From Candidatus Enterousia sp. (GTDB taxonomy: Bacteria > Pseudomonadota > Alphaproteobacteria > Rs-D84), in NCBI GenBank assembly GCA_045593065.1, contig JAZNVZ010000003.1:14248-78247 (forward strand): a DNA stretch of 64,000 nt, given 5' to 3'. Position 1 is the first letter of the stretch; every line of letters begins with the position of its first letter. A program made the translations under genes and the position numbers. The notes under the pieces were generated by a model that was not told the DNA's origin, did no database searches, and saw nothing but the letters and a program-made list of their open reading frames with translations. Shown here one piece after another: positions 4,773 to 53,527 of the stretch.

Positions 4773-5816
4773 TTAATCTTCGGTTTTTTCAGGAATTCGA
4801 CCGTCTGTGGATAATAATACTGCAATCCAACGTGTCGAATCAAATTGTGCGGTAATAATAAATATTGCAGCCAAAATCGGCACACTGAAAAACATACCTG
4901 CGACACCCCATAACAATCCCCAAAATACCAAATTGATTAATATTGCTAATGTGGACAGGTTTAATGTTTTCCCCATTAATTTTGGATCAATAATATTTCC
5001 AAATATGGTTTCCAGAACAATCAAACCGCCAGCGGTTAATAATGGCAAATGTAATGAATCCCCAGAAATCATTGCGTATAAAATTGGCAGTGCGCACGCA
5101 ACAATAGAACCAATCGTTGGAATGTAATTCATAATGAATATCAAAAACGCCCAAACGCCAGCGAATTCTAATCCAATGGCACGCAACCAGATGTATGCAC
5201 ATATACCCGTGGCGCCAGCAATGGCTGTTTTTACAAACAAATATTTTTTCATGTTTTTATCAAAACTTTCAACAATATAACCAAATTTTTTTGTTTTGGA
5301 TTTTGATTCAAACAAGTTGTTCATTTTATGATGAAATGTACTTTGTTCTACAAACAAGAATAAAATGTAAATCAAAATCATGCCCAATGATGTCGCAATA
5401 TTTGCCGCAGATGCACCAACTGTTTTTACAATGTCAGTTAGTTTTGGGAACATGTTTATATCAAATGTTAATCCTAATTTATTGAACATATATGTACTGA
5501 ATGTAATCAGTTTTTCTTGAATTTCTGGGATACGCGCAACCAGTTCCGAAAACATAGGGTTTATTTGTGTCGCGAATGCGTACAATAAATAGCATAAACT
5601 GGTGGCAGACAGTAATATTGACAATATATTAAAAAATTCTGGCCAAAACACAGGACATTTCTTTTTGCAATAATTAAACGGCAAAATTTTGCGAAAATAT
5701 GCCGCGATTGCGTTTATTAAATACCATAAAAATATTGCAACCAATAATGGAATTAATATGGTGCGACCAAACCATAACAATATAACCAGACCGGTAAAAA
5801 TAATTATTCCATTCAT
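4773..5816 (-). CDS. AI-2E family (PerM/YhhT-like) transporter
   Basis: 347 aa polytopic membrane protein with a typical AI-2E fold pattern. Confidence 0.8.
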   Translation of the reverse strand: MNGIIIFTGLVILLWFGRTILIPLLVAIFLWYLINAIAAYFRKILPFNYCKKKCPVFWPEFFNILSILLSATSLCYLLYAFATQINPMFSELVARIPEIQEKLITFSTYMFNKLGLTFDINMFPKLTDIVKTVGASAANIATSLGMILIYILFLFVEQSTFHHKMNNLFESKSKTKKFGYIVESFDKNMKKYLFVKTAIAGATGICAYIWLRAIGLEFAGVWAFLIFIMNYIPTIGSIVACALPILYAMISGDSLHLPLLTAGGLIVLETIFGNIIDPKLMGKTLNLSTLAILINLVFWGLLWGVAGMFFSVPILAAIFIITAQFDSTRWIAVLLSTDGRIPEKTED

Positions 5817-6542: not shown

Positions 6543-7868
6543 TTATTCCTTGCCTAGTGCCATTTGTATTAATTGTTTTGATTCTACCAAGAATTCCATT
6601 GGTAATCTAGATATAATTGGGTTGGCCGTTGCGCCGATTATCAAAGCAATCGCTTGGTCTGTGGTGATGCCAGATTGTTCCAGAAAAAACAGTGTGGCGA
6701 CATCAATAGCGCCTGTGGTGGCCTCATGCGATTGGATGTTGGTATTGTTGGTATGAATAATTGTTGGGATTGTATTCGCAGTAGCATTTTCACCCACAAT
6801 GGTTGTGTCGCATTTTGATGCGTTTGCACAATGTTCGCCAGTAAAATTAACCAAACTGCGGAATGTTTGTTTAGAATCATCTAATGCAACCCCATATGAC
6901 ACAATGTTCGATACAGAATTATTTCCAATATGAATCATTTTCGTTCCTGTGTCAGATTGTTGGGCACCACGCGTAATTGTCAGTGAATAAAAATCGCTAT
7001 GCGCATTGTTTCCGGACAAAATTGTTGATGGGTATTTCCATGTCATGGCCGACCCAATTTCAATTTGCGTCCAATCAAGTGTCGCATTATTTTCGCATTT
7101 GCCGCGTTTCGTTACAAAATTCAAAATACCACCGACAGGTTTGTTTCCTATATGTTTCCCAGCATACCAATTTTGTACAGTTGAATATTTTACATACGCA
7201 TTATCCAGCACAACAATTTCAACAACACCGCTGTGTAATTGATGATTGGGACGGCGTGGGGCACTGCATCCTTCCATATAACTTAAATTTGCACCAGTAT
7301 CTGCGATAATCAGTGTGCGTTCAAATTGACCAATTTTTGCGGTTTCGATTCTAAAATAACTGGCCAAATCAATAGGGCATTTTGTGTGTGGCGGAACATA
7401 TACAAATGTGCCGTCTGAAAATACCGCAGCGTTTAACGCTGCAAAAAAATTGTCAGTAGCAGGAACAACACTCCCCAGATATTTTTTTACCAGGTCTGGA
7501 TATTGAATTACAGCATCACTGAATGGTAAAAATATAATCCCCAGTTTTGCTAGTTCTGCGGTGTATGATGTGTGCACAGATTGACTGTCGATGACGGTAT
7601 CGGTTGCCATACCCAGTAATGCCTGTTGTTCGCTTTCAGGGATGCCCATTTTTTTATATGTGTCAGCCAAATCTGAATTATCAATCGGTTTTGCCCCAGC
7701 AAAATATTCCAATGAATCGTAATCGATTGGGTCAAAATCTATTTCTGCCCAATGAGGTTCTTGCATTTTTTGCCACGCGTCAAACGCCGCCAATCGCCAA
7801 TCTAGCAACCATTGAGGTTCATTGCGTTTTGTTGATATTTCTCGAATAAGATTTGCATCCAATTTCAA
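6543..7868 (-). CDS. sufB: Fe-S cluster assembly protein SufB
   Basis: 441 aa SufB/SufD-family protein located upstream of sufC. Its C-terminal region (DTGTKMIHIGNNS...HEATT...LPMEF) matches SufB. Confidence 0.82.
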   Translation of the reverse strand: MKLDANLIREISTKRNEPQWLLDWRLAAFDAWQKMQEPHWAEIDFDPIDYDSLEYFAGAKPIDNSDLADTYKKMGIPESEQQALLGMATDTVIDSQSVHTSYTAELAKLGIIFLPFSDAVIQYPDLVKKYLGSVVPATDNFFAALNAAVFSDGTFVYVPPHTKCPIDLASYFRIETAKIGQFERTLIIADTGANLSYMEGCSAPRRPNHQLHSGVVEIVVLDNAYVKYSTVQNWYAGKHIGNKPVGGILNFVTKRGKCENNATLDWTQIEIGSAMTWKYPSTILSGNNAHSDFYSLTITRGAQQSDTGTKMIHIGNNSVSNIVSYGVALDDSKQTFRSLVNFTGEHCANASKCDTTIVGENATANTIPTIIHTNNTNIQSHEATTGAIDVATLFFLEQSGITTDQAIALIIGATANPIISRLPMEFLVESKQLIQMALGKE

Positions 7869-12184: not shown

Positions 12185-12218
12185 AAATACTGTTATTATG
12201 TTCTTTGTTTTTTTGTCA

Positions 12219-12232
12219 TTTTGTGTTATAAT
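12219..12232 (+). promoter_or_regulatory. extended -10 element (TGtTATAAT) upstream of the 12268 gene
   Basis: The sequence gtgttataatg lies about 35 nt upstream of the ATG. The -35 (TTTGTT) is weak. Confidence 0.3.
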
Positions 12233-12267: not shown

Positions 12268-13095
12268 ATGAAAAAGTATTTTGCTTTGTTGATGTTATGT
12301 GTGTTTATGATGCCTGCGTTTGGGGCGGGACGTTCTATGGTTAGCGGTATTAGACCGTCTGGTATTGGTGTCGCACGCAATGCCGGTGTTGTTGGAACAT
12401 CTGGGAATAATGTTGTAAATGGTGCGGCGGTGGTGCCTGCGGGAAATGCACAGGCAACTGTTAATACACCTGATACAAAATCGGCGGAAAAATCACCCGA
12501 ATCCGCGCGTCAGCAAGAAAAAATGACTTGCATTAATAATAATATTGGTATTGGAAATACTTTCGTTTGGGCATCCAGATATAGTAATACATCTAATTAT
12601 TCCACAATGGTCGAAGATGTTGAACACCCGGAAAACAATGTGTGTTTCGTTTTGGTGGGTATTCGTTCCGAAGATGCGGCTGTTAATACCGCTGATATTC
12701 AACCCAGATATTTTGAATGGGGTCAAAATATAACTTGCGGTAGTTGGGTCGATGAAGAAAAATTAAAAGACAGAATTTTAGATGCAAAAAAGAAAGGTCG
12801 TGTGTGGGCAACGATTGGTACATCTGTGGCTGGTGCTGGGGTTGGTGTTGGTATGATGGAGGCATTCGGTAATAAATTGATTGGGGGCAAGGTTCAAGGA
12901 CAAAAGGCATATGCCGAAGGTTCAATCGAATGGTATCAGGCCAAAGCAAACGAATTGAAACAAAAAAATCCAACAGAGTATAATAATTTCAAAACATTAG
13001 TGGCAGAATTAAAAACAGTTTGCAACGCATCTGGTGCTGATGCCCAGTGTAAGGATAGCAAATATCAAAATTTGATGAGTTTGTCATTAAATTAA
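12268..13095 (+). CDS. secreted hypothetical protein (275 aa) with a Gly/Val-rich N-terminal VVGTSG region
   Basis: Signal peptide MKKYFALLMLCVFMMPAFGA, strong RBS ggtggg, and paired Cys residues in the C-terminal half. Confidence 0.6.
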   Translation: MKKYFALLMLCVFMMPAFGAGRSMVSGIRPSGIGVARNAGVVGTSGNNVVNGAAVVPAGNAQATVNTPDTKSAEKSPESARQQEKMTCINNNIGIGNTFVWASRYSNTSNYSTMVEDVEHPENNVCFVLVGIRSEDAAVNTADIQPRYFEWGQNITCGSWVDEEKLKDRILDAKKKGRVWATIGTSVAGAGVGVGMMEAFGNKLIGGKVQGQKAYAEGSIEWYQAKANELKQKNPTEYNNFKTLVAELKTVCNASGADAQCKDSKYQNLMSLSLN

Positions 13096-46316: not shown

Positions 46317-47456
46317 ATGAAAGTAAGAAATTTCGCGTTTTTCGGCGTAATGGCCGCAATTTTGTCCGTTAGTGCCGCTAACGCAGATACAACAAAACGT
46401 ATCGCATCAACAAATTACGTTGATAACAAAGTTGATAATCAACATAATGGTCAGGTTATCACAGCAACCGACACTACTGGTGTGATAGGATATAAACAGA
46501 TTGATAGCGCAGTAACACAAGGTTCTTCCAACTTGGTTACATCTGGTGCTGTTCAAACAGCTATCGCTAATTCACAAAATGCTACAACATATACAGCGGG
46601 TGATGGTTTGGATTTAAATAATAATGAATTTACTGCAAATGTAGGTGATGGTCTTGCTATCAATGCTACAAGTAAAGCAATTGAATTAGATGCTGCAACA
46701 CAAGCATCGTTGGCTTTGGCTGATACAGCATTGCAACAACACCAAGATATTTCTGGCAAACAAGACAACTTGGGTGGTGGTGCTAATGATGGTAAGGTTG
46801 TTACAGCCACAGGTACGGCGGGTTCAGTTACTTATACTGGAATTGATACCACAGTAGGAGCAAATGCTAACAACTTGGTTACATCTGGTGCTGTTCAAAC
46901 AGCTATCTCTAATGCACAAAATGCTACAACATATACAGCAGGTGACGGTTTGAGTTTAGATGGTAATGAGTTTAATGCAGAGGTTGGTACAGGCCTTGCT
47001 ATTAATGGTAGTGGAGCAATTGAATTAGATTCTGCAACACAAGCATCGTTGGCTTTGGCAGATACAGCATTGCAACAACACCAAGATATCAGCGGTAAAC
47101 AAGACAAGATTGCTAACGCAACAGCTAATGATATCACAATAACAGATGCGAATGGTCAAACACAAGATTCAGGTAAAGCATTTACAACAACAGTTAGTGC
47201 AAGCAGTACAGATGCTCAAATCCCAACAGCACTTGCTGTCCAAACAGCTATCTCTGGTGCAGTTGATACCGCAATCGATGGTGTTACATATCCAACTGTT
47301 AATATTACTGGTAATAATGCTTTGGCTAATATTGATGGTACTGCTGCGGCGAACCAAGACACCCATTGTTCAGCAAATGAACCTTGTGTATTGACATACG
47401 AAGGCAACGGTGCTTACAAATGGTCATCTATTTGGGGTTTGCCAACAAACAACTAA
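46317..47456 (+). CDS. exported fibre-repeat protein 3 (paralog)
   Basis: Signal peptide MKVRNFAFFGVMAAILSVSAANA, then KRIASTNYVDNKV. An approximately 80-aa unit (NLVTSGAVQTAI.N.QNATTYTAGDGL.L..NEF.A.VG.GLAIN......IELD.ATQASLALADTALQQHQDISGKQD) occurs twice. The C-terminal module is CSANEPCVLTYEGNGAYKWSSIW. Confidence 0.8.
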   Translation: MKVRNFAFFGVMAAILSVSAANADTTKRIASTNYVDNKVDNQHNGQVITATDTTGVIGYKQIDSAVTQGSSNLVTSGAVQTAIANSQNATTYTAGDGLDLNNNEFTANVGDGLAINATSKAIELDAATQASLALADTALQQHQDISGKQDNLGGGANDGKVVTATGTAGSVTYTGIDTTVGANANNLVTSGAVQTAISNAQNATTYTAGDGLSLDGNEFNAEVGTGLAINGSGAIELDSATQASLALADTALQQHQDISGKQDKIANATANDITITDANGQTQDSGKAFTTTVSASSTDAQIPTALAVQTAISGAVDTAIDGVTYPTVNITGNNALANIDGTAAANQDTHCSANEPCVLTYEGNGAYKWSSIWGLPTNN

Positions 47457-47613
47457 TTGTTGACCGTTTCAGCATAGGTTTATGTTGAAATAAAAATCAC
47501 ATGTTTTGATTCCGTACCCCCGCGCAGATTTGCGTGGGGGTTTCTGGTTGCTCCGTTTTCGCTTGCAAATGGTGTTATACTGGTGTATCATTGCCGCAAA
47601 GGATGCGCGGGAA

Positions 47614-49407
47614 ATGGACCAAAAATATATTAGAAATTTTTCTATTGTTGCACATATTGATCATGGTAAATCAACCTTGTCTGATCGCCTTATCGAATTT
47701 ACTGGTGGTTTACAGTCCCGCGAAATGAAGGCCCAGGTTCTGGATTCTATGGATATCGAACGCGAACGCGGAATTACAATCAAGGCGCAAACCGTTCGTT
47801 TGAAATATCGCGCACATGACGGACATGAATATCAACTGAATTTAATGGACACACCGGGACATGTGGACTTTTCTTACGAGGTATCGCGGAGTTTAGCAGC
47901 GTGCGAGGGCGCAATTATCTTGGTCGATGCAACCCAGGGTGTCCAGGCGCAAACATTGGCAAATGCTTATTTGGCGTTGGATAATGATTTGGAAATGTTG
48001 CCGGTGTTAAATAAAATCGATTTGCCGTCCAGTGATGTTTCTGGTACGCGTGAACAAATCAGCGATGCGATTGGTTTGGATGCATCAAATGCGATTTGTG
48101 TGTCGGGTAAAACAGGCGCGGGTGTTCCAGAATTGTTGGAAGAAATCGTTACAAAATTGCCGGCACCACATGGTGATGCGGCGGCGGCAACACGCGCGTT
48201 GTTGGTGGATTCTTGGTATGATTCTTATTTGGGCGTGGTGGTGTTGGTGCGCGTGGTTGACGGAAGTTTGCGCCGTGGTCAAAAGATAAAGTTTGTTGCA
48301 ACTGGCGCAGAATACACTGTCGAAAAAATCGGTTATTTCACACCTAAAATGGTTGATGTTGACGTATTGTCCACGGGCGAGGTTGGATTTATCATTACAG
48401 GTATGAAAACAATTCACGATTGCAAGGTTGGTGATACTATCGTTGATGCTAAATTTGGTGGGGACGCGTTGCCCGGATTTAAACCGTCTGTGCCGGTGGT
48501 GTTTTCTTCGTTCTTTCCAATGGCGGCAGATGATTACCCCAGTTTGCGCGAAGGTGCAGAAAAATTGGCGTTAAACGATGCGTCTTTTACTTTTACGGTT
48601 GAAAAATCGTCTGCGTTGGGATTTGGATTGCGTTGTGGATTTTTAGGACTGTTGCACATGGAAATTATCAGCGAGCGTTTGGCGCGTGAATTTAATTTGT
48701 CGCTGATTAACACTGTCCCCAGTGTGTTATACAAATTGCACCTGCGCGATGGAACGGTTATGGATTTAGAAAATCCAGCCGATATGCCTGACCCAACGCG
48801 TGTCGATTTTATCGAAGAACCCTGGGTGTTGGCAACAATCATGATGCCGGATAAATATTTAGGCGGTATTATGGAATTGTGCGCATCACGCCGTGGTGTC
48901 CAAGATAATATTTCTTATGTTGGTAATCGTGCGGTGTTGACATATCGGTTGCCGTTGGCGGAAATCGTGTTCGATTTTTATGACCGTGTGAAATCGATAT
49001 CTTCGGGGTATGCTTCGTTCGATTATTCTGTGTGCGGGTATCAGCAATCTGATTTGGTCAAGGTGTCAATATTGGTTAATGACGAAAATGTCGAACCGTT
49101 GTCGTTTATGTGTCATCGGTCATCGGCGGAATCACGCGGTCGACAAATTGTGGAAAAATTAAAAGACCTGATTCCACGGCATCAATTCAAAATCCCACTC
49201 CAGGCCGCAATCGGTGGAAAAATTATCGCACGCGAAACTATCGCTGCATACCGCAAAGATGTTACCGCAAAATGTTATGGCGGCGATATCACGCGTAAAC
49301 GCAAATTGTTGGAAAAACAAAAAGAGGGTAAAAAACGTCTGCGGACATTTGGGAATGTCGAAATACCTCAGTCGGCATTTATCAACGCATTAAAGGTTGG
49401 TAAGTAA
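47614..49407 (+). CDS. lepA: elongation factor 4 (LepA)
   Basis: GTPase motifs AHIDHGKST and DTPGHVDF, plus the LepA-specific C-terminal domain. I used the internal start MDQKYIRNF. Confidence 0.9.
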
Positions 49408-49432
49408 ATTATAGGTAAAGGAGCGTGCTTTC

Positions 49433-49819
49433 ATGTCTATTACAAAAAAATTAAAAATTAAAAAATCACAATGGCGCGAATTTATTAGATGCGCAAAAAT
49501 AATGCGCGATGCAAGTGCAAATGTGGCACGCGCCGAAGATAAAATACACCTGAAAAAAACTTATAGTTATGATATCGAACAGGTCGGTTGGGACAATGGT
49601 TCTTGCTTGGTTACGCATGTGTATCCTGGCAAGGATGAATTCGGTGCTCAGGTGAATAAAAAATATCGTGATGTTTGTGAACATTTTGAATGTTGCAAAT
49701 GTTCATATTGTGTGCATCACCGTGATTGGCACAATTATAGGGACGCCAAGAAATCTTATGAATTGGCAAAAATTGCGTTCAGGATAGCCAGACAAAAATT
49801 TTTTGCAAAAGTAAAATAA
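49433..49819 (+). CDS. small Cys-rich hypothetical protein, paralog 1 of 3 (integrase-linked)
   Basis: RBS aaggag. The C-terminal cluster is CEHFECCKCSYCVHH followed by a basic helix YELAKIAFRIARQKFFAKVK. Confidence 0.6.
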   Translation: MSITKKLKIKKSQWREFIRCAKIMRDASANVARAEDKIHLKKTYSYDIEQVGWDNGSCLVTHVYPGKDEFGAQVNKKYRDVCEHFECCKCSYCVHHRDWHNYRDAKKSYELAKIAFRIARQKFFAKVK

Positions 49820-49840
49820 AAAAAACCAAAGGAGGCGCAC

Positions 49841-50236
49841 ATGTGTATAAAAAAAATTTGTCTTAATAATATAAAAAAATTGCGTATGCATCGCGCAGAC
49901 CAAGATGCGTATGATGAAAAATATAATGCGTACACAAAAACTTTGGATGCATTGAAAAAGGTAAAGACCCAGCACGAAGCCGCCCAGGCCGATATTACAA
50001 AAACTGTGTATCTGGATGCGGGTGATGCTGCGCCAAAGCAAGAAATTTGCCGTATGGTCGTGTACGAAGATATGCAACCTAAATATATTCAAACATGTTC
50101 GTATTTCAAAGATTGTGATAACGCCGATTGTCCGCATTACAAAAAGTTAGCGCGTTATATGCATGTGGATGAACAACTGGTCGTGGCAAAAATCGCATTC
50201 GAACGCGCCGAATCTGTGTGGAGTAAACAACGATAA
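49841..50236 (+). CDS. small Cys-rich hypothetical protein, paralog 2 of 3
   Basis: RBS aaggagg. Cluster CSYFKDCDNADCPHY followed by VVAKIAFERAESVWSKQR. Confidence 0.6.
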   Translation: MCIKKICLNNIKKLRMHRADQDAYDEKYNAYTKTLDALKKVKTQHEAAQADITKTVYLDAGDAAPKQEICRMVVYEDMQPKYIQTCSYFKDCDNADCPHYKKLARYMHVDEQLVVAKIAFERAESVWSKQR

Positions 50237-50247
50237 AAAAGGTCGTA

Positions 50248-50646
50248 ATGATGTCTGTGAAAAAAAGGTTTTTAGATTTTTTGAATCGTTATGATGATGT
50301 TCGTCAATGGAGTCGTGCATTGGCGAATGCTGGCATAGAACTGTGGGATGCACAACATAATATTACTGTCAATTATTTTTGGATTGGTGATATGTTGCCT
50401 GATGACAGTTTGTCTAATGGCAAACCTTGTTTCCGTGCCTATGTTCGTGATATTGATGATTACATGCACGCGGACAGGTCGCGTACGTTTGTTTGTGAAC
50501 AAATCCGTAATGGCGCAATATGCAAATGTACTGATTGCCAGTATTATCAAAACTATGCAAAATATTTGGCTGTATTGCGCAAGTATGATGCAATCCAGGC
50601 ACTGAGAGATGAAGCGGTAAAAAATTTGTACGCAAAGCAAAAATAA
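50248..50646 (+). CDS. small Cys-rich hypothetical protein, paralog 3 of 3
   Basis: Cluster CEQIRNGAICKCTDCQYY followed by a basic tail ...KNLYAKQK. The spacing to the neighbouring genes is tight. Confidence 0.55.
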   Translation: MMSVKKRFLDFLNRYDDVRQWSRALANAGIELWDAQHNITVNYFWIGDMLPDDSLSNGKPCFRAYVRDIDDYMHADRSRTFVCEQIRNGAICKCTDCQYYQNYAKYLAVLRKYDAIQALRDEAVKNLYAKQK

Positions 50647-50667
50647 AAAAGCAAAAGGAGAAAAATT

Positions 50668-51669
50668 ATGGCGCACCAGTTTTTCTTTAATCCGTATATC
50701 TTGGATGGGCTGCCAACGCCCGCAACAGGATTTGATGTCGTGCAAGATATTTCGGAACCACGGTTGCGTTTGTATATAACCAGTCGTGGCGCAAAAACTT
50801 TCTTTGTGCGTAAACGTGTGCATGGCAAAGACACCAGAATCATTATCGGTTCGTATCCAGAAATGGATATCGAAACTGCGCGCAGTATGGTGGCAACAGT
50901 GTTGAATGATGCGACCAAAAAAATTCCAATGCGCCGTAAACAAATCGGTTTTCGTGAATTTTGGGGGGAATATTTGAAAAACAAGGTGCGCCGCTGCGAA
51001 GATTCCCAGGTGAAATTGGTGCGCGCGGTTAATCAACATTTGCCAGAATTGTTCGATAAAAATCTGGACGAAATATCCCAGACCGATGTGAAATCTGTGA
51101 TTGAAAAAATCAAAGGGCCGGCAATCGCTGCGCGTATGCAAGAGGTTTTAACCAGTATATTCAAATATGGTATAGACCAAGGGTATATTAAAACAAATCC
51201 TGTGGCCGGATTGCCACGATTGGCGCATGTTCGCCGTAAAATCCCATTAAACGAAAACAATTTCCCAAATTTGATGGATGCTATTCGCGCAGTGGACAAC
51301 GAAACTATGCGAAACACTTTTTTGATGTTGATTTATTCGTTCTTGTCAAAAAGTAAAGTGTTGGCGATGCGCTGGGATGAATTAGATTTTAATCGTTATA
51401 CTTTACATGATTGGCCGTTGCCTGATGTCGCGGTGGTGTTGTTGGAACAGATGCCCCAAGATGGCGATTGGGTTTTTGTTGGTCGCTGCAAAAATCATTT
51501 GATGGACCCACGGGTTGCGTGGAATAATGTTGTGCATGCCGCAGGTATTCCAGGATTGCGTATGGATGATGTACATAAATTCTTGATGCGGCGACTGGTA
51601 TGGGCGGCTGACCGCGAAGATTTGCGCGCAAATATGAATTCTTTGTTAAACGAATTGTCTATATATTAA
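50668..51669 (+). mobile_element. int: tyrosine recombinase / phage (P4-type) integrase with an N-terminal arm-binding DUF4102-like domain
   Basis: RBS aaaaggag. N-terminus LPTPATGFDVVQDISEPRLRLYITSRGAKTFFVRKRV. A central SAM-like region and a C-terminal catalytic region (...HDWPL..., ...HKFLMRRLVWAA) are present. The catalytic Tyr cannot be placed with confidence. Confidence 0.72.
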
Positions 51670-51810
51670 AAAATATGTTTGTCAAGTTTTTGTTATAATT
51701 TGTTATAATCTCTTGACACCAGGTGCCGAAAATGATAAATTTGGTTAGTATGAGAAAATGCCCGTGGTTTTTTGTGGGGCGTGAAAGTTAACAAAAATAA
51801 AGGATTAAAA

Positions 51811-52044
51811 ATGTCAACTTTTGAACAAGTTAAAAAGATTATCGTTGAAAAATTGGGTGTTAAAGAGGCCGATATTACAGAAAACGCCACATTCGTGAAT
51901 GATTTGGGTGCAGATTCTTTGGATGTTGTCGAATTCGTGATGGAGGTTGAAAAAGAATTCAATATTACAATCCCAGACGAAGATGCTGTGAAATTGGAAA
52001 AAGTTGGTGATGCTGTTAAATATATCGATGCACACAGAAAATAA
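51811..52044 (+). CDS. acpP: acyl carrier protein
   Basis: 77 aa protein with the DLGADSLD phosphopantetheine-attachment motif. Confidence 0.92.
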
Positions 52045-52157
52045 TTTCCAATTAAAATAAAAAATTATCCGCCATGTGTGTGGCGGATTTTTTTCTGTAT
52101 ATTTTTTCTAAAATATATTATGATAGGCCTGTTATAAATAATAAAAAAGGATTATTG

Positions 52158-53408
52158 ATGAGAAGAGTTGTCGTAACCGGCATGGGTATCGTTTCGCCCG
52201 TTGGTACAGGTGTTGAATTCGCATGGAAAAATATTGTACGCGGTGTGTCAGGGGTGCGTAAAATCGATACTTTTGATACCACAGATTTTGCGTCTAAAAT
52301 TGCGGGTGTGCCTGTGCGTGGCGATGGGGCAGGGGAATTTAATCCCGATACAGTTGTCGAACCACGCGAACAACGCAAATATGACCGCGCAATGTTGTAC
52401 GGTGTTGTCGCCGCAGACGAGGCCATGCGTGATGCAAATTTGACGGATTATGATGGCGACAAAGATATGTTCGGCGTGTCTATTGGCAGTGGTATCGGTG
52501 GCGTTCAAACAATTTATGATACATGTTTAGAATTGTCTAAATCTGGGCCACGATTTGTCAGTCCGTTCTTTGTACCAAAGGCAATTATTAATATGACCGC
52601 AGGTCAGGTATCAATAAAATATGGTTTGCGTGGGCCTAATATTTCTGTGGCAACTGCGTGTGCAACAGGTTCGCACGCCATTGCCGAGGCCGTGAATTTT
52701 ATTCGTAATGGCACAGCAGATTTAATGTTGGCCGGTGGGACCGAGGCCGCAGTTACCGAATTAGGATTGGCGGGCTTTTCTGCGATGAAGGCATTGTCAA
52801 CACGTAATGATGACCCGACACATGCTTCGCGTCCATGGGATATGACGCGTGATGGGTTTGTCTTGGCCGAAGGCGCAGGTGTTTTGGTACTGGAAGAATA
52901 TGAACACGCTGTCAAACGCGGCGCAAAAATTTATGCCGAGGTTGCAGGTTGTGGTATGACCGCTGATGCGCATCATATTACTGCGCCCGCCCCAAATGGC
53001 GAAGGTGGTCGCCGGTCTATGCAAATGGCATTACGTGATGCAGGAATGAAACCTGGGGATATTGATTATGTGAACGCACACGGCACATCCACAGGGTTGG
53101 GTGATGTTGGTGAATTGGTTGCGGTGCGTGAATTGTTTGGCGATGAACATACATGTATGTCATCAACAAAATCAATGACAGGGCATTTGTTGGGGGCGGC
53201 TGGTGCGATTGAGGCGATATTCAGCATATTGGCAATTCGCGATAATATCGTTCCGCCAACAATCAATCTGGAAAACCCAATCCCAGAGGTTGGCAGCTTT
53301 AACCTGGTGCCAAATGCAGCACAAAAACGTGAAGTGAATGCGGTAATCAGTAATTCGTTTGGGTTCGGTGGAACAAACGCATCAGTCATATTCAAACGCG
53401 TAAAATAA
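52158..53408 (+). CDS. fabF: 3-oxoacyl-ACP synthase II
   Basis: Active-site C in ATACATGSHA, the H..GH.TG region and the GFGG C-terminus. Start MRRVVVTGMGIVSP. Confidence 0.9.
   Translation: MRRVVVTGMGIVSPVGTGVEFAWKNIVRGVSGVRKIDTFDTTDFASKIAGVPVRGDGAGEFNPDTVVEPREQRKYDRAMLYGVVAADEAMRDANLTDYDGDKDMFGVSIGSGIGGVQTIYDTCLELSKSGPRFVSPFFVPKAIINMTAGQVSIKYGLRGPNISVATACATGSHAIAEAVNFIRNGTADLMLAGGTEAAVTELGLAGFSAMKALSTRNDDPTHASRPWDMTRDGFVLAEGAGVLVLEEYEHAVKRGAKIYAEVAGCGMTADAHHITAPAPNGEGGRRSMQMALRDAGMKPGDIDYVNAHGTSTGLGDVGELVAVRELFGDEHTCMSSTKSMTGHLLGAAGAIEAIFSILAIRDNIVPPTINLENPIPEVGSFNLVPNAAQKREVNAVISNSFGFGGTNASVIFKRVK

Positions 53409-53450: not shown

Positions 53451-53527
<77 letters not shown>

Follow-up and report, generated by a model that had tools for sequence, protein, structure and literature searches.

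The DNA examined in this work is a 64,000-nt window from Candidatus Enterousia sp. (assembly GCA_045593065.1, contig JAZNVZ010000003.1, positions 14,248-78,247 of the forward strand), and the system under study lies between lepA and acpP, where three small open reading frames (ORF1, ORF2 and ORF3) lead into a gene with homology to tyrosine recombinases of the P4/IntS type. Such an arrangement, three tightly spaced small ORFs and then an integrase homolog, had been put forward in an original prediction and is confirmed here, with products of 128, 131, 132 and 333 amino acids (aa). Each small protein carries the four Cys residues that are invariant in its family (Cys4). The features of the locus, in window coordinates, are as follows.

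47516..47541 (+), terminator-like hairpin upstream of lepA, 5' boundary of the putative transcription unit (pattern scan)
47620..49407 (+), lepA, encoding the elongation factor 4 (EF4) GTPase, first gene of the putative operon; start approximate, stop codon 49405-49407
49433..49819 (+), ORF1, small Cys4 paralog 1, 128 aa, isoelectric point (pI) 9.5
49604-06, 49676-78, 49694-96, 49709-11 (+), invariant Cys codons of ORF1 (C58, C82, C88, C93)
49841..50236 (+), ORF2, small Cys4 paralog 2, 131 aa, pI 8.7
50048-50, 50096-98, 50114-16, 50129-31 (+), invariant Cys codons of ORF2 (C70, C86, C92, C97)
50248..50646 (+), ORF3, small Cys4 paralog 3, 132 aa, pI 8.6; alternative start 50251
50428-30, 50494-96, 50521-23, 50536-38 (+), invariant Cys codons of ORF3 (C61, C83, C92, C97)
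50668..51669 (+), integrase-like gene, P4/IntS-type tyrosine-recombinase homolog, 333 aa; arm-type domain ~aa 1-85, core-binding domain ~aa 95-182, degenerate catalytic-fold domain ~aa 194-333
51678..51741 (+), conserved intergenic block with the acpP promoter or promoters and a candidate operator
51811..52044 (+), acpP, acyl carrier protein, 77 aa, invariant downstream neighbour
52074-53408, fabF, after acpP
53451-53527, tRNA-Pro, after fabF

LepA was identified from the translation of its ORF and from the Pfam domains GTP_EFTU/LepA_C on its orthologs in the retrieved loci L001 and L005-L007, and a promoter scan placed a promoter-like TTGCAA-17-TATCAT 5' of the gene, at 47563-47591. The downstream genes follow one another at short distances, with 25 nt from the lepA stop to ORF1, 21 nt from ORF1 to ORF2, 11 nt from ORF2 to ORF3 and 21 nt from ORF3 to the integrase-like gene. 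Strong Shine-Dalgarno (SD) sequences, spaced 5-9 nt upstream, precede three of these four genes (AAGGAG at 49418-49423 for ORF1, AAGGAGG at 49829-49835 for ORF2 and AAGGAG at 50655-50660 for the integrase-like gene); the claim that every small ORF has one fails for ORF3, where there is just a weak AAAGG at 50238-50242. A pattern scan of the + strand found a terminator-like site with a strong stem after acpP (52067-52088) and no comparably strong site from lepA to the end of the integrase-like gene, the only stems in that interval being short ones of 5-7 bp within coding sequence (50408-25, 50468-84 and 51455-72). The short gaps, the SD sites and the absence of a strong terminator-like site make an operon reading reasonable, and we infer that lepA, the small genes and the integrase-like gene form one operon. 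No known RNA family other than tRNA was found in the locus. The GC content of the integrase-like gene (0.435) matches that of the genome and the locus is native in this respect, with values of 0.381 for the small ORFs and 0.416 for the window.

The integrase-like protein matched the Pfam families Arm-DNA-bind_3 (DUF4102; 31.6 bits vs a cut-off of 27) and Phage_int_M (31.8 bits vs 27), whereas the catalytic domain, Phage_integrase, stayed below threshold (12.2 bits vs 27.1, E = 0.16) and was aligned over aa 194-246 only. Scores against the XerD and integrase models of NCBIfam were far under their cut-offs. A phmmer search matched the protein to the P4-like arm domain 3jtz, Foldseek aligned its N-terminal domain to the arm domains 3jtz and 3rmp (TMt 0.77-0.78), and the core-binding domain gave profile matches to 2kkv (E 1e-5) and 2kj9 (E 3e-5). 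The AlphaFold2 (AF2) model, with a predicted local distance difference test score (pLDDT) of 81, had full-length lambda Int (1z1b) as its top Foldseek match (E 3e-8, probability 1.0). The nearest phage integrases, of the IntS, Sf6 and CUS-3 type, are 24% identical. With regard to membership of the P4/IntS-type integrases, the arm and core-binding domains are thus present, whereas a match to the catalytic model, the catalytic residues and a mobile context were not found; the designation 'P4-type integrase' is correct as to homology and wrong as to function, every catalytic residue being missing.

The catalytic site was read from an alignment of orthologs, from a hidden Markov model (HMM) alignment to lambda Int and from a MAFFT alignment with Sf6 and lambda Int. 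In place of Arg-I (R212 of lambda Int, the Arg of 'ALR' in Sf6) the window protein has Ser and its orthologs have Pro, Ser or Thr; a deletion of ~12 residues has removed the beta-hairpin with the catalytic Lys; the H-G-F-R of Sf6 (HxxR) is aligned to D-V-[H/Y/N]-K; and a deletion of ~25 residues takes out 'LAH...GIY', that is, the second His and the Tyr nucleophile. Among 22 orthologs no invariant Tyr or His is present after residue 277, whereas conservation is strong in the arm-type and core-type DNA-binding domains, the first ~70 residues, which belong to the arm-binding domain, being almost invariant. The C-terminal helix of this type of integrase is retained (R-x-N-M-N-x-L-L vs K-R-R-E-M-M-Q-W-W in Sf6 Int). 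With Arg-I, the Lys hairpin, the HxxR motif and the His/Tyr segment all lost the protein cannot be a recombinase.

The gene is nevertheless not in decay. The ratio of nonsynonymous to synonymous substitution rates (dN/dS), which here and below was calculated from orthologs in locus L001 with 79-88% protein identity, was 0.11 for the integrase-like gene. More than 1000 relatives of the protein were found; in the best 120 clusters the length is always 332-337 aa and the identity 60-99%, and the named members among these 120 clusters are metagenome-assembled genomes (MAGs) of Alphaproteobacteria or Proteobacteria and Candidatus Enterousia. This dN/dS and the constant length in the best 120 clusters rule out a decaying pseudogene or prophage remnant. 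The features of an exapted recombinase fold are found together in one protein, i.e., a retained fold (lambda Int, probability 1.0), the loss of catalytic residues and a dN/dS of 0.11. To judge from its sequence, the integrase-like protein is a domesticated, catalytically dead recombinase of the P4/IntS type which is most likely kept for DNA binding; listing it among the integrases would be wrong, and it is referred to below as the pseudo-integrase.

The order Rs-D84, to which Candidatus Enterousia is assigned, is uncultured, with genomes that are ~0.75-1.0 Mb in size and lack the tricarboxylic acid (TCA) cycle and respiration (PMC12306168). When each GTDB species was scanned with one genome, the pseudo-integrase turned up in 271 species, and 80 loci with flanks of ~0.7 Mb in total were retrieved. 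Both genes were scorable in 77 non-redundant loci, and in these the pseudo-integrase gene lies downstream of lepA, and ~1.15-1.3 kb upstream of acpP wherever the retrieved sequence reaches far enough. The order lepA, 0-5 small ORFs, pseudo-integrase gene, acpP, fabF is fixed in more than 80 species-level genomes of gut and rumen Alphaproteobacteria of Rs-D84, with lepA, pseudo-integrase gene and acpP in one and the same order in 83 non-redundant loci. The gap between lepA and the pseudo-integrase gene falls into discrete size classes (16-25 bp, ~400, ~800, ~1200 and ~1650 bp, and 2283 bp) which correspond to the number of small ORFs, the class of 16-25 bp having no small gene. Among 83 genomes the gap contains no small ORF in 11, one in 47, two in 11, three in 10, four in three and five in one. 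A variable number of small genes between genomes was borne out, with 0-5 copies, while 11 genomes keep the pseudo-integrase gene without any small gene. It should be noted that locus L001 was counted by the script as having three small ORFs, and that gene calls and the ORF listing give four (128, 137, 131 and 131 aa). The additional paralog of L001 (137 aa, 7421-7834) lies between the orthologs of ORF1 and ORF2, where the window has a 21-nt spacer (49820-49840), which indicates that one gene was cleanly gained or lost between close relatives.

Over 77 loci the identity of the pseudo-integrase is correlated with that of LepA (Pearson r = 0.90), and no relative of the protein was found in 2.9 million IMG/VR viral contigs. 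The flanks of the locus contain no att-like direct repeats and no inverted repeats of note, and no tRNA gene adjoins the locus, the nearest being the tRNA-Pro gene 1.8 kb downstream, past acpP-fabF. A mobile island with att sites was rejected on the absence of flanking direct repeats, of an adjacent tRNA and of a match to viral contigs, together with the fixed synteny; a shufflon or phase-variation cassette was rejected as the genes are co-oriented, there are no notable inverted repeats and the recombinase is dead. The view of the small genes as cargo riding with an integrase therefore has to be abandoned, because the integrase homolog is dead, is present as a single copy fixed between lepA and acpP, diverges together with LepA and has no match in IMG/VR. 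The locus belongs to the chromosome of reduced-genome gut Alphaproteobacteria of the order Rs-D84 and is passed on vertically as a putative operon. The full arrangement of lepA, Cys4 and pseudo-integrase genes was also seen in one MAG titled 'uncultured Muribaculaceae bacterium' (L053), which most likely stems from a mistake in binning or labelling and not from transfer to Bacteroidota.

The three small proteins of the window are linked by weak pairwise BLASTP matches (E 4e-5, 0.003 and 0.01) via their C-terminal thirds. An HMM built from the homologs of other genomes matched ORF1, ORF2 and ORF3 (E 7e-15, 1e-13 and 2e-9) and nothing else at E<10 among the 381 ORFs of the 64-kb window. Their dN/dS values are 0.37, 0.21 and 0.09, respectively, compared to 0.03 for lepA. 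On this evidence ORF1 to ORF3 can be taken to be real genes and true diverged paralogs, and the proposal of diverged paralogs with a Cys-based, metal-binding-like module is upheld. From the gaps between lepA and the pseudo-integrase gene 116 ORFs were taken, of which 112 were retained as family members and grouped at 60% identity into 100 clusters; 108 of the 112 belong to one BLASTP single-linkage component. When the 100 representatives were aligned with MAFFT, the mean column identity was 13% and the only invariant columns were four Cys, present in 100/100, one distal and three clustered, with the pattern C-x(15-35)-C-x(5-12)-C-x(3-5)-C. The cluster of about four Cys in the original prediction is to be corrected to this pattern, and the accompanying HH/HY/YY dyads are not conserved. 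Other common features are an aromatic residue at C82+3 (Phe in 75%), a Pro right after the last Cys (48%), an N-x-x-Y six to nine residues past the last Cys (N 62%, Y 82%) and a basic C-terminal consensus, FWxxKFxxxK. The N-terminal halves had been described as unrelated to one another; they are very divergent and yet alignable at the level of the family, the profile matches spanning positions ~4-132.

The family is basic (median pI 9.06, with 86% of members above 8.5), has N-termini predicted to be amphipathic helices, and shows no signal peptide or transmembrane segment. In the AF2 model of ORF1 (pLDDT 72.5) an N-terminal helix (3-37) is followed by a low-confidence linker, a beta-hairpin (59-67/73-81) and a C-terminal helix (94-123), with the four Cys at the base of the beta-hairpin and in the following loop up to the start of the C-terminal helix, a region with a pLDDT of 54-71. 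The fold is thus predicted to be a helical hairpin with a beta-hairpin and metal knuckle at its tip. No Pfam family was matched by more than two of the 100 members, no member matched a Xis/AlpA, Cro/CI, Ner or Ogr_Delta model, and no Whib or Fe-S family was matched recurrently; nor is the predicted fold a winged helix or helix-turn-helix. The small ORFs had no match in PHROGs or NCBIfam and no relative in sequence and fold searches of the PDB, none of the four proteins, the pseudo-integrase included, matched a PADLOC model at E<=1, and the BFVD library of viral structures gave nothing at E <= 1e-3 for the small protein. The earlier failure to recognise the proteins as excisionases, Cro/CI, Ner or another standard regulator next to integrases is consistent with these results, and assignments to Xis, AlpA, Cro, Ner or toxin-antitoxin families were rejected for want of a match in Pfam, PHROGs, NCBIfam and PADLOC. 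By all of these comparisons, the small proteins are a new family without known relative.

An exhaustive HMMER run against 1.84 billion cluster representatives gave 98 family hits, all of 92-260 aa, whereas a word-indexed search with the 100-sequence alignment gave three new clusters only, so that exhaustive HMMER is needed for this family. The long HMMER hits (218-260 aa) consist of two family modules in one chain. Fusions of two Cys4 modules, of 218-369 aa, were observed in several genomes (the arrays of L076 and L079 and proteins P0133, P0135, P0170, P0189 and P0214), and these natural fusions suggest that the modules may act as dimers. All 116 HMM hits in the 0.7 Mb of flanking sequence are inside the gap between lepA and the pseudo-integrase gene and on the same strand. 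Where a genome has more than one copy, the best match of 59 of the 61 copies was to a different genome and not to the same array, which indicates that the paralog lineages are old and differentially retained rather than recent duplicates. An arms race, as had been suggested for this locus, is accordingly not demonstrated, given dN/dS values below 1 and the old age of the paralogs. One array contains a gene of another kind among the Cys4 genes, the third ORF of L070 encoding a protein of 100 aa which is like an acyl carrier protein and has a DSLD motif.

Beyond the pseudo-integrase gene the DNA itself is conserved. A block starting 9 nt after the stop codon contains, in this order, TTTGTCAAG, then TTTGTTAT-N2-TTTGTTATAAT, N2-CTTGACA, ~14 nt and TGATA. 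It was seen in about 75 related genomes that were aligned, and in 73 genomes most of its positions are more than 80% conserved. In the window two tandem TTGTTATAAT repeats are located at 51690-51709, TTGACA at 51713-18 and an extended -10 element, TGATAAATT, at 51733-41; according to the promoter scan the latter two form the acpP promoter, with TTGTCA-N18/19-TATAAT as a possible second one. Of the two TTGTTAT repeats, the first is in neither promoter hexamer and yet equally conserved in the 73 genomes. The arm-binding domains of heteronymous integrases (lambda, P4-type) recognise short direct repeats, which makes the tandem TTGTTAT repeat, as far as sequence can tell, a candidate operator for the arm domain of the pseudo-integrase. 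In 0.71 Mb of sequence 74 of the 78 occurrences of the double TGTTAT motif are at the acpP promoter site; with four occurrences elsewhere and one weak extra match in the window no TTGTTAT regulon is evident. The sole other near-match to the tandem repeat in the window, at 12213-12232 (+), has two mismatches (TTGTCATTTTGTGTTATAAT), lies upstream of an ORF at 12268-13095 and is probably just a promoter. Some loci have an additional element of ~95 nt before the acpP promoter (L008 ~4997-5170, L013 and L016 ~5000-5120, L020 ~5000-5160), which is partly duplicated in L008 and L020 and absent from the window. Its predicted structure is a long hairpin (-33.7 kcal/mol, z = -8.7 vs shuffles) without Rfam match, and it could be a palindromic element like miniature inverted-repeat transposable elements (MITEs) or repetitive extragenic palindromes (REPs), or a structured RNA.

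Comparison with known systems places these parts only partially. The pseudo-integrase shares its three-domain architecture, arm domain, core-binding domain and C-terminal helix with the integrases of P4/IntS type (CP4-57, Sf6, high-pathogenicity island), and differs from them in that its gene is single-copy, vertically inherited and off mobile elements. SroF/MrpR (YopR) is an integrase-fold master repressor of SPbeta-like phages without catalytic Tyr, the partners of which are small, rapidly diverging proteins encoded nearby, forming multiple specific pairs; the small antirepressor of SroF, Sar, mimics DNA and is controlled by LexA, and its SPbeta counterpart YopT has 72 aa (bioRxiv 10.1101/2025.11.27.690993; PMC10516654). 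The lepA-acpP locus likewise combines a recombinase fold without catalytic tyrosine with small diverging proteins alongside, the interaction and the role in DNA binding being putative in our case. Unlike the pseudo-integrase, SroF has no arm-binding domain and is encoded by phages, and there is no detectable sequence relation between the two; unlike Sar, the proteins described here are basic, of the Cys4 type and ~130 aa long, and their genes are chromosomal and precede that of the pseudo-integrase in the putative operon. TnsF, an inactivated tyrosine recombinase, is the target selector of Tn6022-like Tn7 transposons (PMC10293859). Its zinc fingers are fused at the N-terminus of the same polypeptide and the protein serves a transposon, whereas the Cys modules are here encoded by separate genes and no transposition genes were found at the lepA-acpP locus.

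The small proteins, for their part, are like Ogr/Delta, the late-gene activators of P2/P4, in being of a small Cys4 type, with metal binding putative in our family, and in having a similar local C-x-N-x-x-C knuckle. Delta of P4 is a covalently duplicated module, which resembles the two-module fusions of our family. The spacing in Ogr (C-x2-C-x22-C-x4-C) is however unlike that of the Cys4 family, and the Cys4 proteins are longer, with flanking long helices; homology to Ogr/Delta was rejected on an hhalign probability of 1.9% over 10 aligned columns and on the differing Cys spacing. The Wbl proteins of actinobacteria have ~80-140 aa, multiple paralogs, four invariant Cys with the spacing C-x(14-22)-C-x2-C-x5-C and a basic C-terminal tail. 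They are comparable to the Cys4 family in small size, in their four invariant Cys, in the basic tail and in the many paralogs per genome, and differ from it in Cys spacing, predicted fold and phylum, with no sequence or profile similarity.

The reading we favour, with a probability of about 0.4 and thus tentatively, is that the pseudo-integrase and the Cys4 proteins form a regulatory module with the small proteins as accessory subunits. In this hypothetical mechanism the integrase derivative would have been exapted to bind DNA at specific sequences or to act as an architectural protein. Each small protein would be a basic antiparallel helical hairpin, the tip of which, made of the beta-hairpin and the Cys knuckle, would be clamped by a single metal ion (probably Zn2+, with an Fe-S cluster as the alternative), and the modules would pair as homo- or heterodimers. 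As dispensable and exchangeable accessory subunits, which is how we understand the 11 of 83 genomes that keep the pseudo-integrase gene without small genes, they could bind nucleic acid, the pseudo-integrase or both, and thereby adjust the binding preference of the complex or its assembly. The tandem TTGTTAT repeat, which is invariant at the neighbouring acpP promoter, would be a plausible target to begin with.

Several points weigh against this proposal. The physical link of the small proteins to the pseudo-integrase or to DNA is one that we infer, and the contrast between an extremely conserved pseudo-integrase and hypervariable small proteins argues against a tight co-evolving interface between them; the 11 genomes without any small protein are a further weakness. 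The small proteins are basic, which sets them apart from the DNA-mimicking antirepressor Sar, and the model of the small protein is of moderate quality, above all in the Cys region. Their pairing with the pseudo-integrase could reflect just the low rearrangement rates of reduced genomes. As to the candidate operator, the rest of the 64-kb window shows no enrichment of the TTGTTAT motif, and since the repeat overlaps the possible promoter TTGTCA-N18/19-TATAAT, a role as promoter or UP-element alone could explain its conservation. A wider version, which we consider unlikely, would make the dead integrase and the Cys4 array a previously unknown chromosomal regulatory or nucleoid-organising system that is core to the minimal genomes of Rs-D84. 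The domesticated P4-type integrase would then be a conserved DNA-binding scaffold to which 0-5 diverged, metal-clamped coiled-coil dimers would supply variable specificity or signal input (e.g., redox or metal sensing), and a possible target would be lipid synthesis via the adjacent acpP-fabF promoter.

It is rather doubtful, if a serious competitor, that the Cys4 proteins are independent of the pseudo-integrase and are fast-evolving accessory proteins facing phages, other microbes or the host, with anti-phage, anti-defence or effector-like functions, which accumulate in a permissive and well-expressed slot behind lepA. A copy number of 0-5 with several independent losses, a divergence so extreme that just the structural Cys are conserved, dN/dS values of 0.21-0.37 for ORF1 and ORF2 that are above those of neighbouring genes, and a pseudo-integrase that is unchanged where small genes are lacking would all fit, as would hosts with reduced genomes which are probably partner-dependent (PMC12306168). 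The variable genes at this site are however all of one family, unlike those of a generic hotspot; they have neither a PADLOC match nor a relative in the viral libraries PHROGs and BFVD, they lack signal peptides and transmembrane segments and start with predicted amphipathic helices, and their dN/dS below 1 and ancient paralog lineages do not have the appearance of recent expansions. An alternative that we hold to be improbable is that the four Cys hold an Fe-S cluster and that the proteins are small redox- or oxygen-sensing transcription factors in the manner of WhiB-like (Wbl) proteins. Exactly four invariant Cys, the frequent Pro after the last of them, the basic C-terminus, multiple paralogs per genome and anaerobic hosts without respiration (PMC12306168) speak for such a function, while no Whib or Fe-S family was matched recurrently in Pfam by the 100 members, the Cys spacing is unlike that of Wbl proteins, and the predicted helical hairpin with beta tip is not the Wbl helical bundle.

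The position of the small genes directly downstream of lepA, at gaps of 11-25 nt and without a strong terminator-like site, together with the small size, basic charge and Cys4 site of their products, could also indicate ribosome or translation factors that are co-expressed with LepA/EF4 and resemble zinc-ribbon ribosomal proteins, with the pseudo-integrase as an unrelated neighbour. We regard this as decidedly improbable, because little sequence variation is normal among proteins docking on the conserved ribosome, whereas the small proteins share ~13-25% identity, are absent from 11 of the 83 genomes and match no ribosomal-protein family. There is finally the idea that a P4-type integrase is active here, in an integrative mobile element or the remnant of a prophage, and carries a diversified array of Cys-rich cargo; to this we give hardly any credence. 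The homology of the N-terminal and central domains to P4/IntS-type integrases and the GC content of the small ORFs, slightly under the window average (0.38 vs 0.416), are what would be expected of it; the loss of all catalytic residues, the fixed position between lepA and acpP, the co-divergence with LepA, the lack of att-like direct repeats and of an adjacent tRNA, the absence from viral contigs and the mere 24% identity to the nearest phage integrases are not.

Domesticated tyrosine recombinases are well known in eukaryotes, as in the genes derived from Cryptons. To our knowledge those of bacteria are known only from mobile elements, as the repressor SroF/MrpR and the selector TnsF, and in the literature searched we found no report of an exapted recombinase fold among the core genes of a host with a minimal genome. 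The conservation and vertical inheritance of a dead integrase in genomes of 0.75-1 Mb, which are shorn of most non-essential genes, make a host function likely, and the pseudo-integrase would be a clear bacterial case of the exaptation of an integrase into the core genome. The Cys4 family, with 0-5 copies at a single locus, would be a tractable and self-contained test case for the diversification of a small, putatively metal-binding module. Automatic annotation labels the pseudo-integrase gene 'integrase family protein', with the consequence that it would be mis-scored as a marker of mobile elements in these MAGs.

A neighbouring gene just upstream of lepA, at 46317-47456 (+) of the window, encodes a protein of 379 aa, the N-terminus of which is hydrophobic and resembles a signal sequence; within the protein there are two long repeats (NATTYTAGDGL...ATQASLALADTALQQHQDISGKQD). 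Counterparts at the same position in L001 and L005 have 375 and 429 aa, respectively, and have no Pfam hit on record; this is possibly a surface protein.

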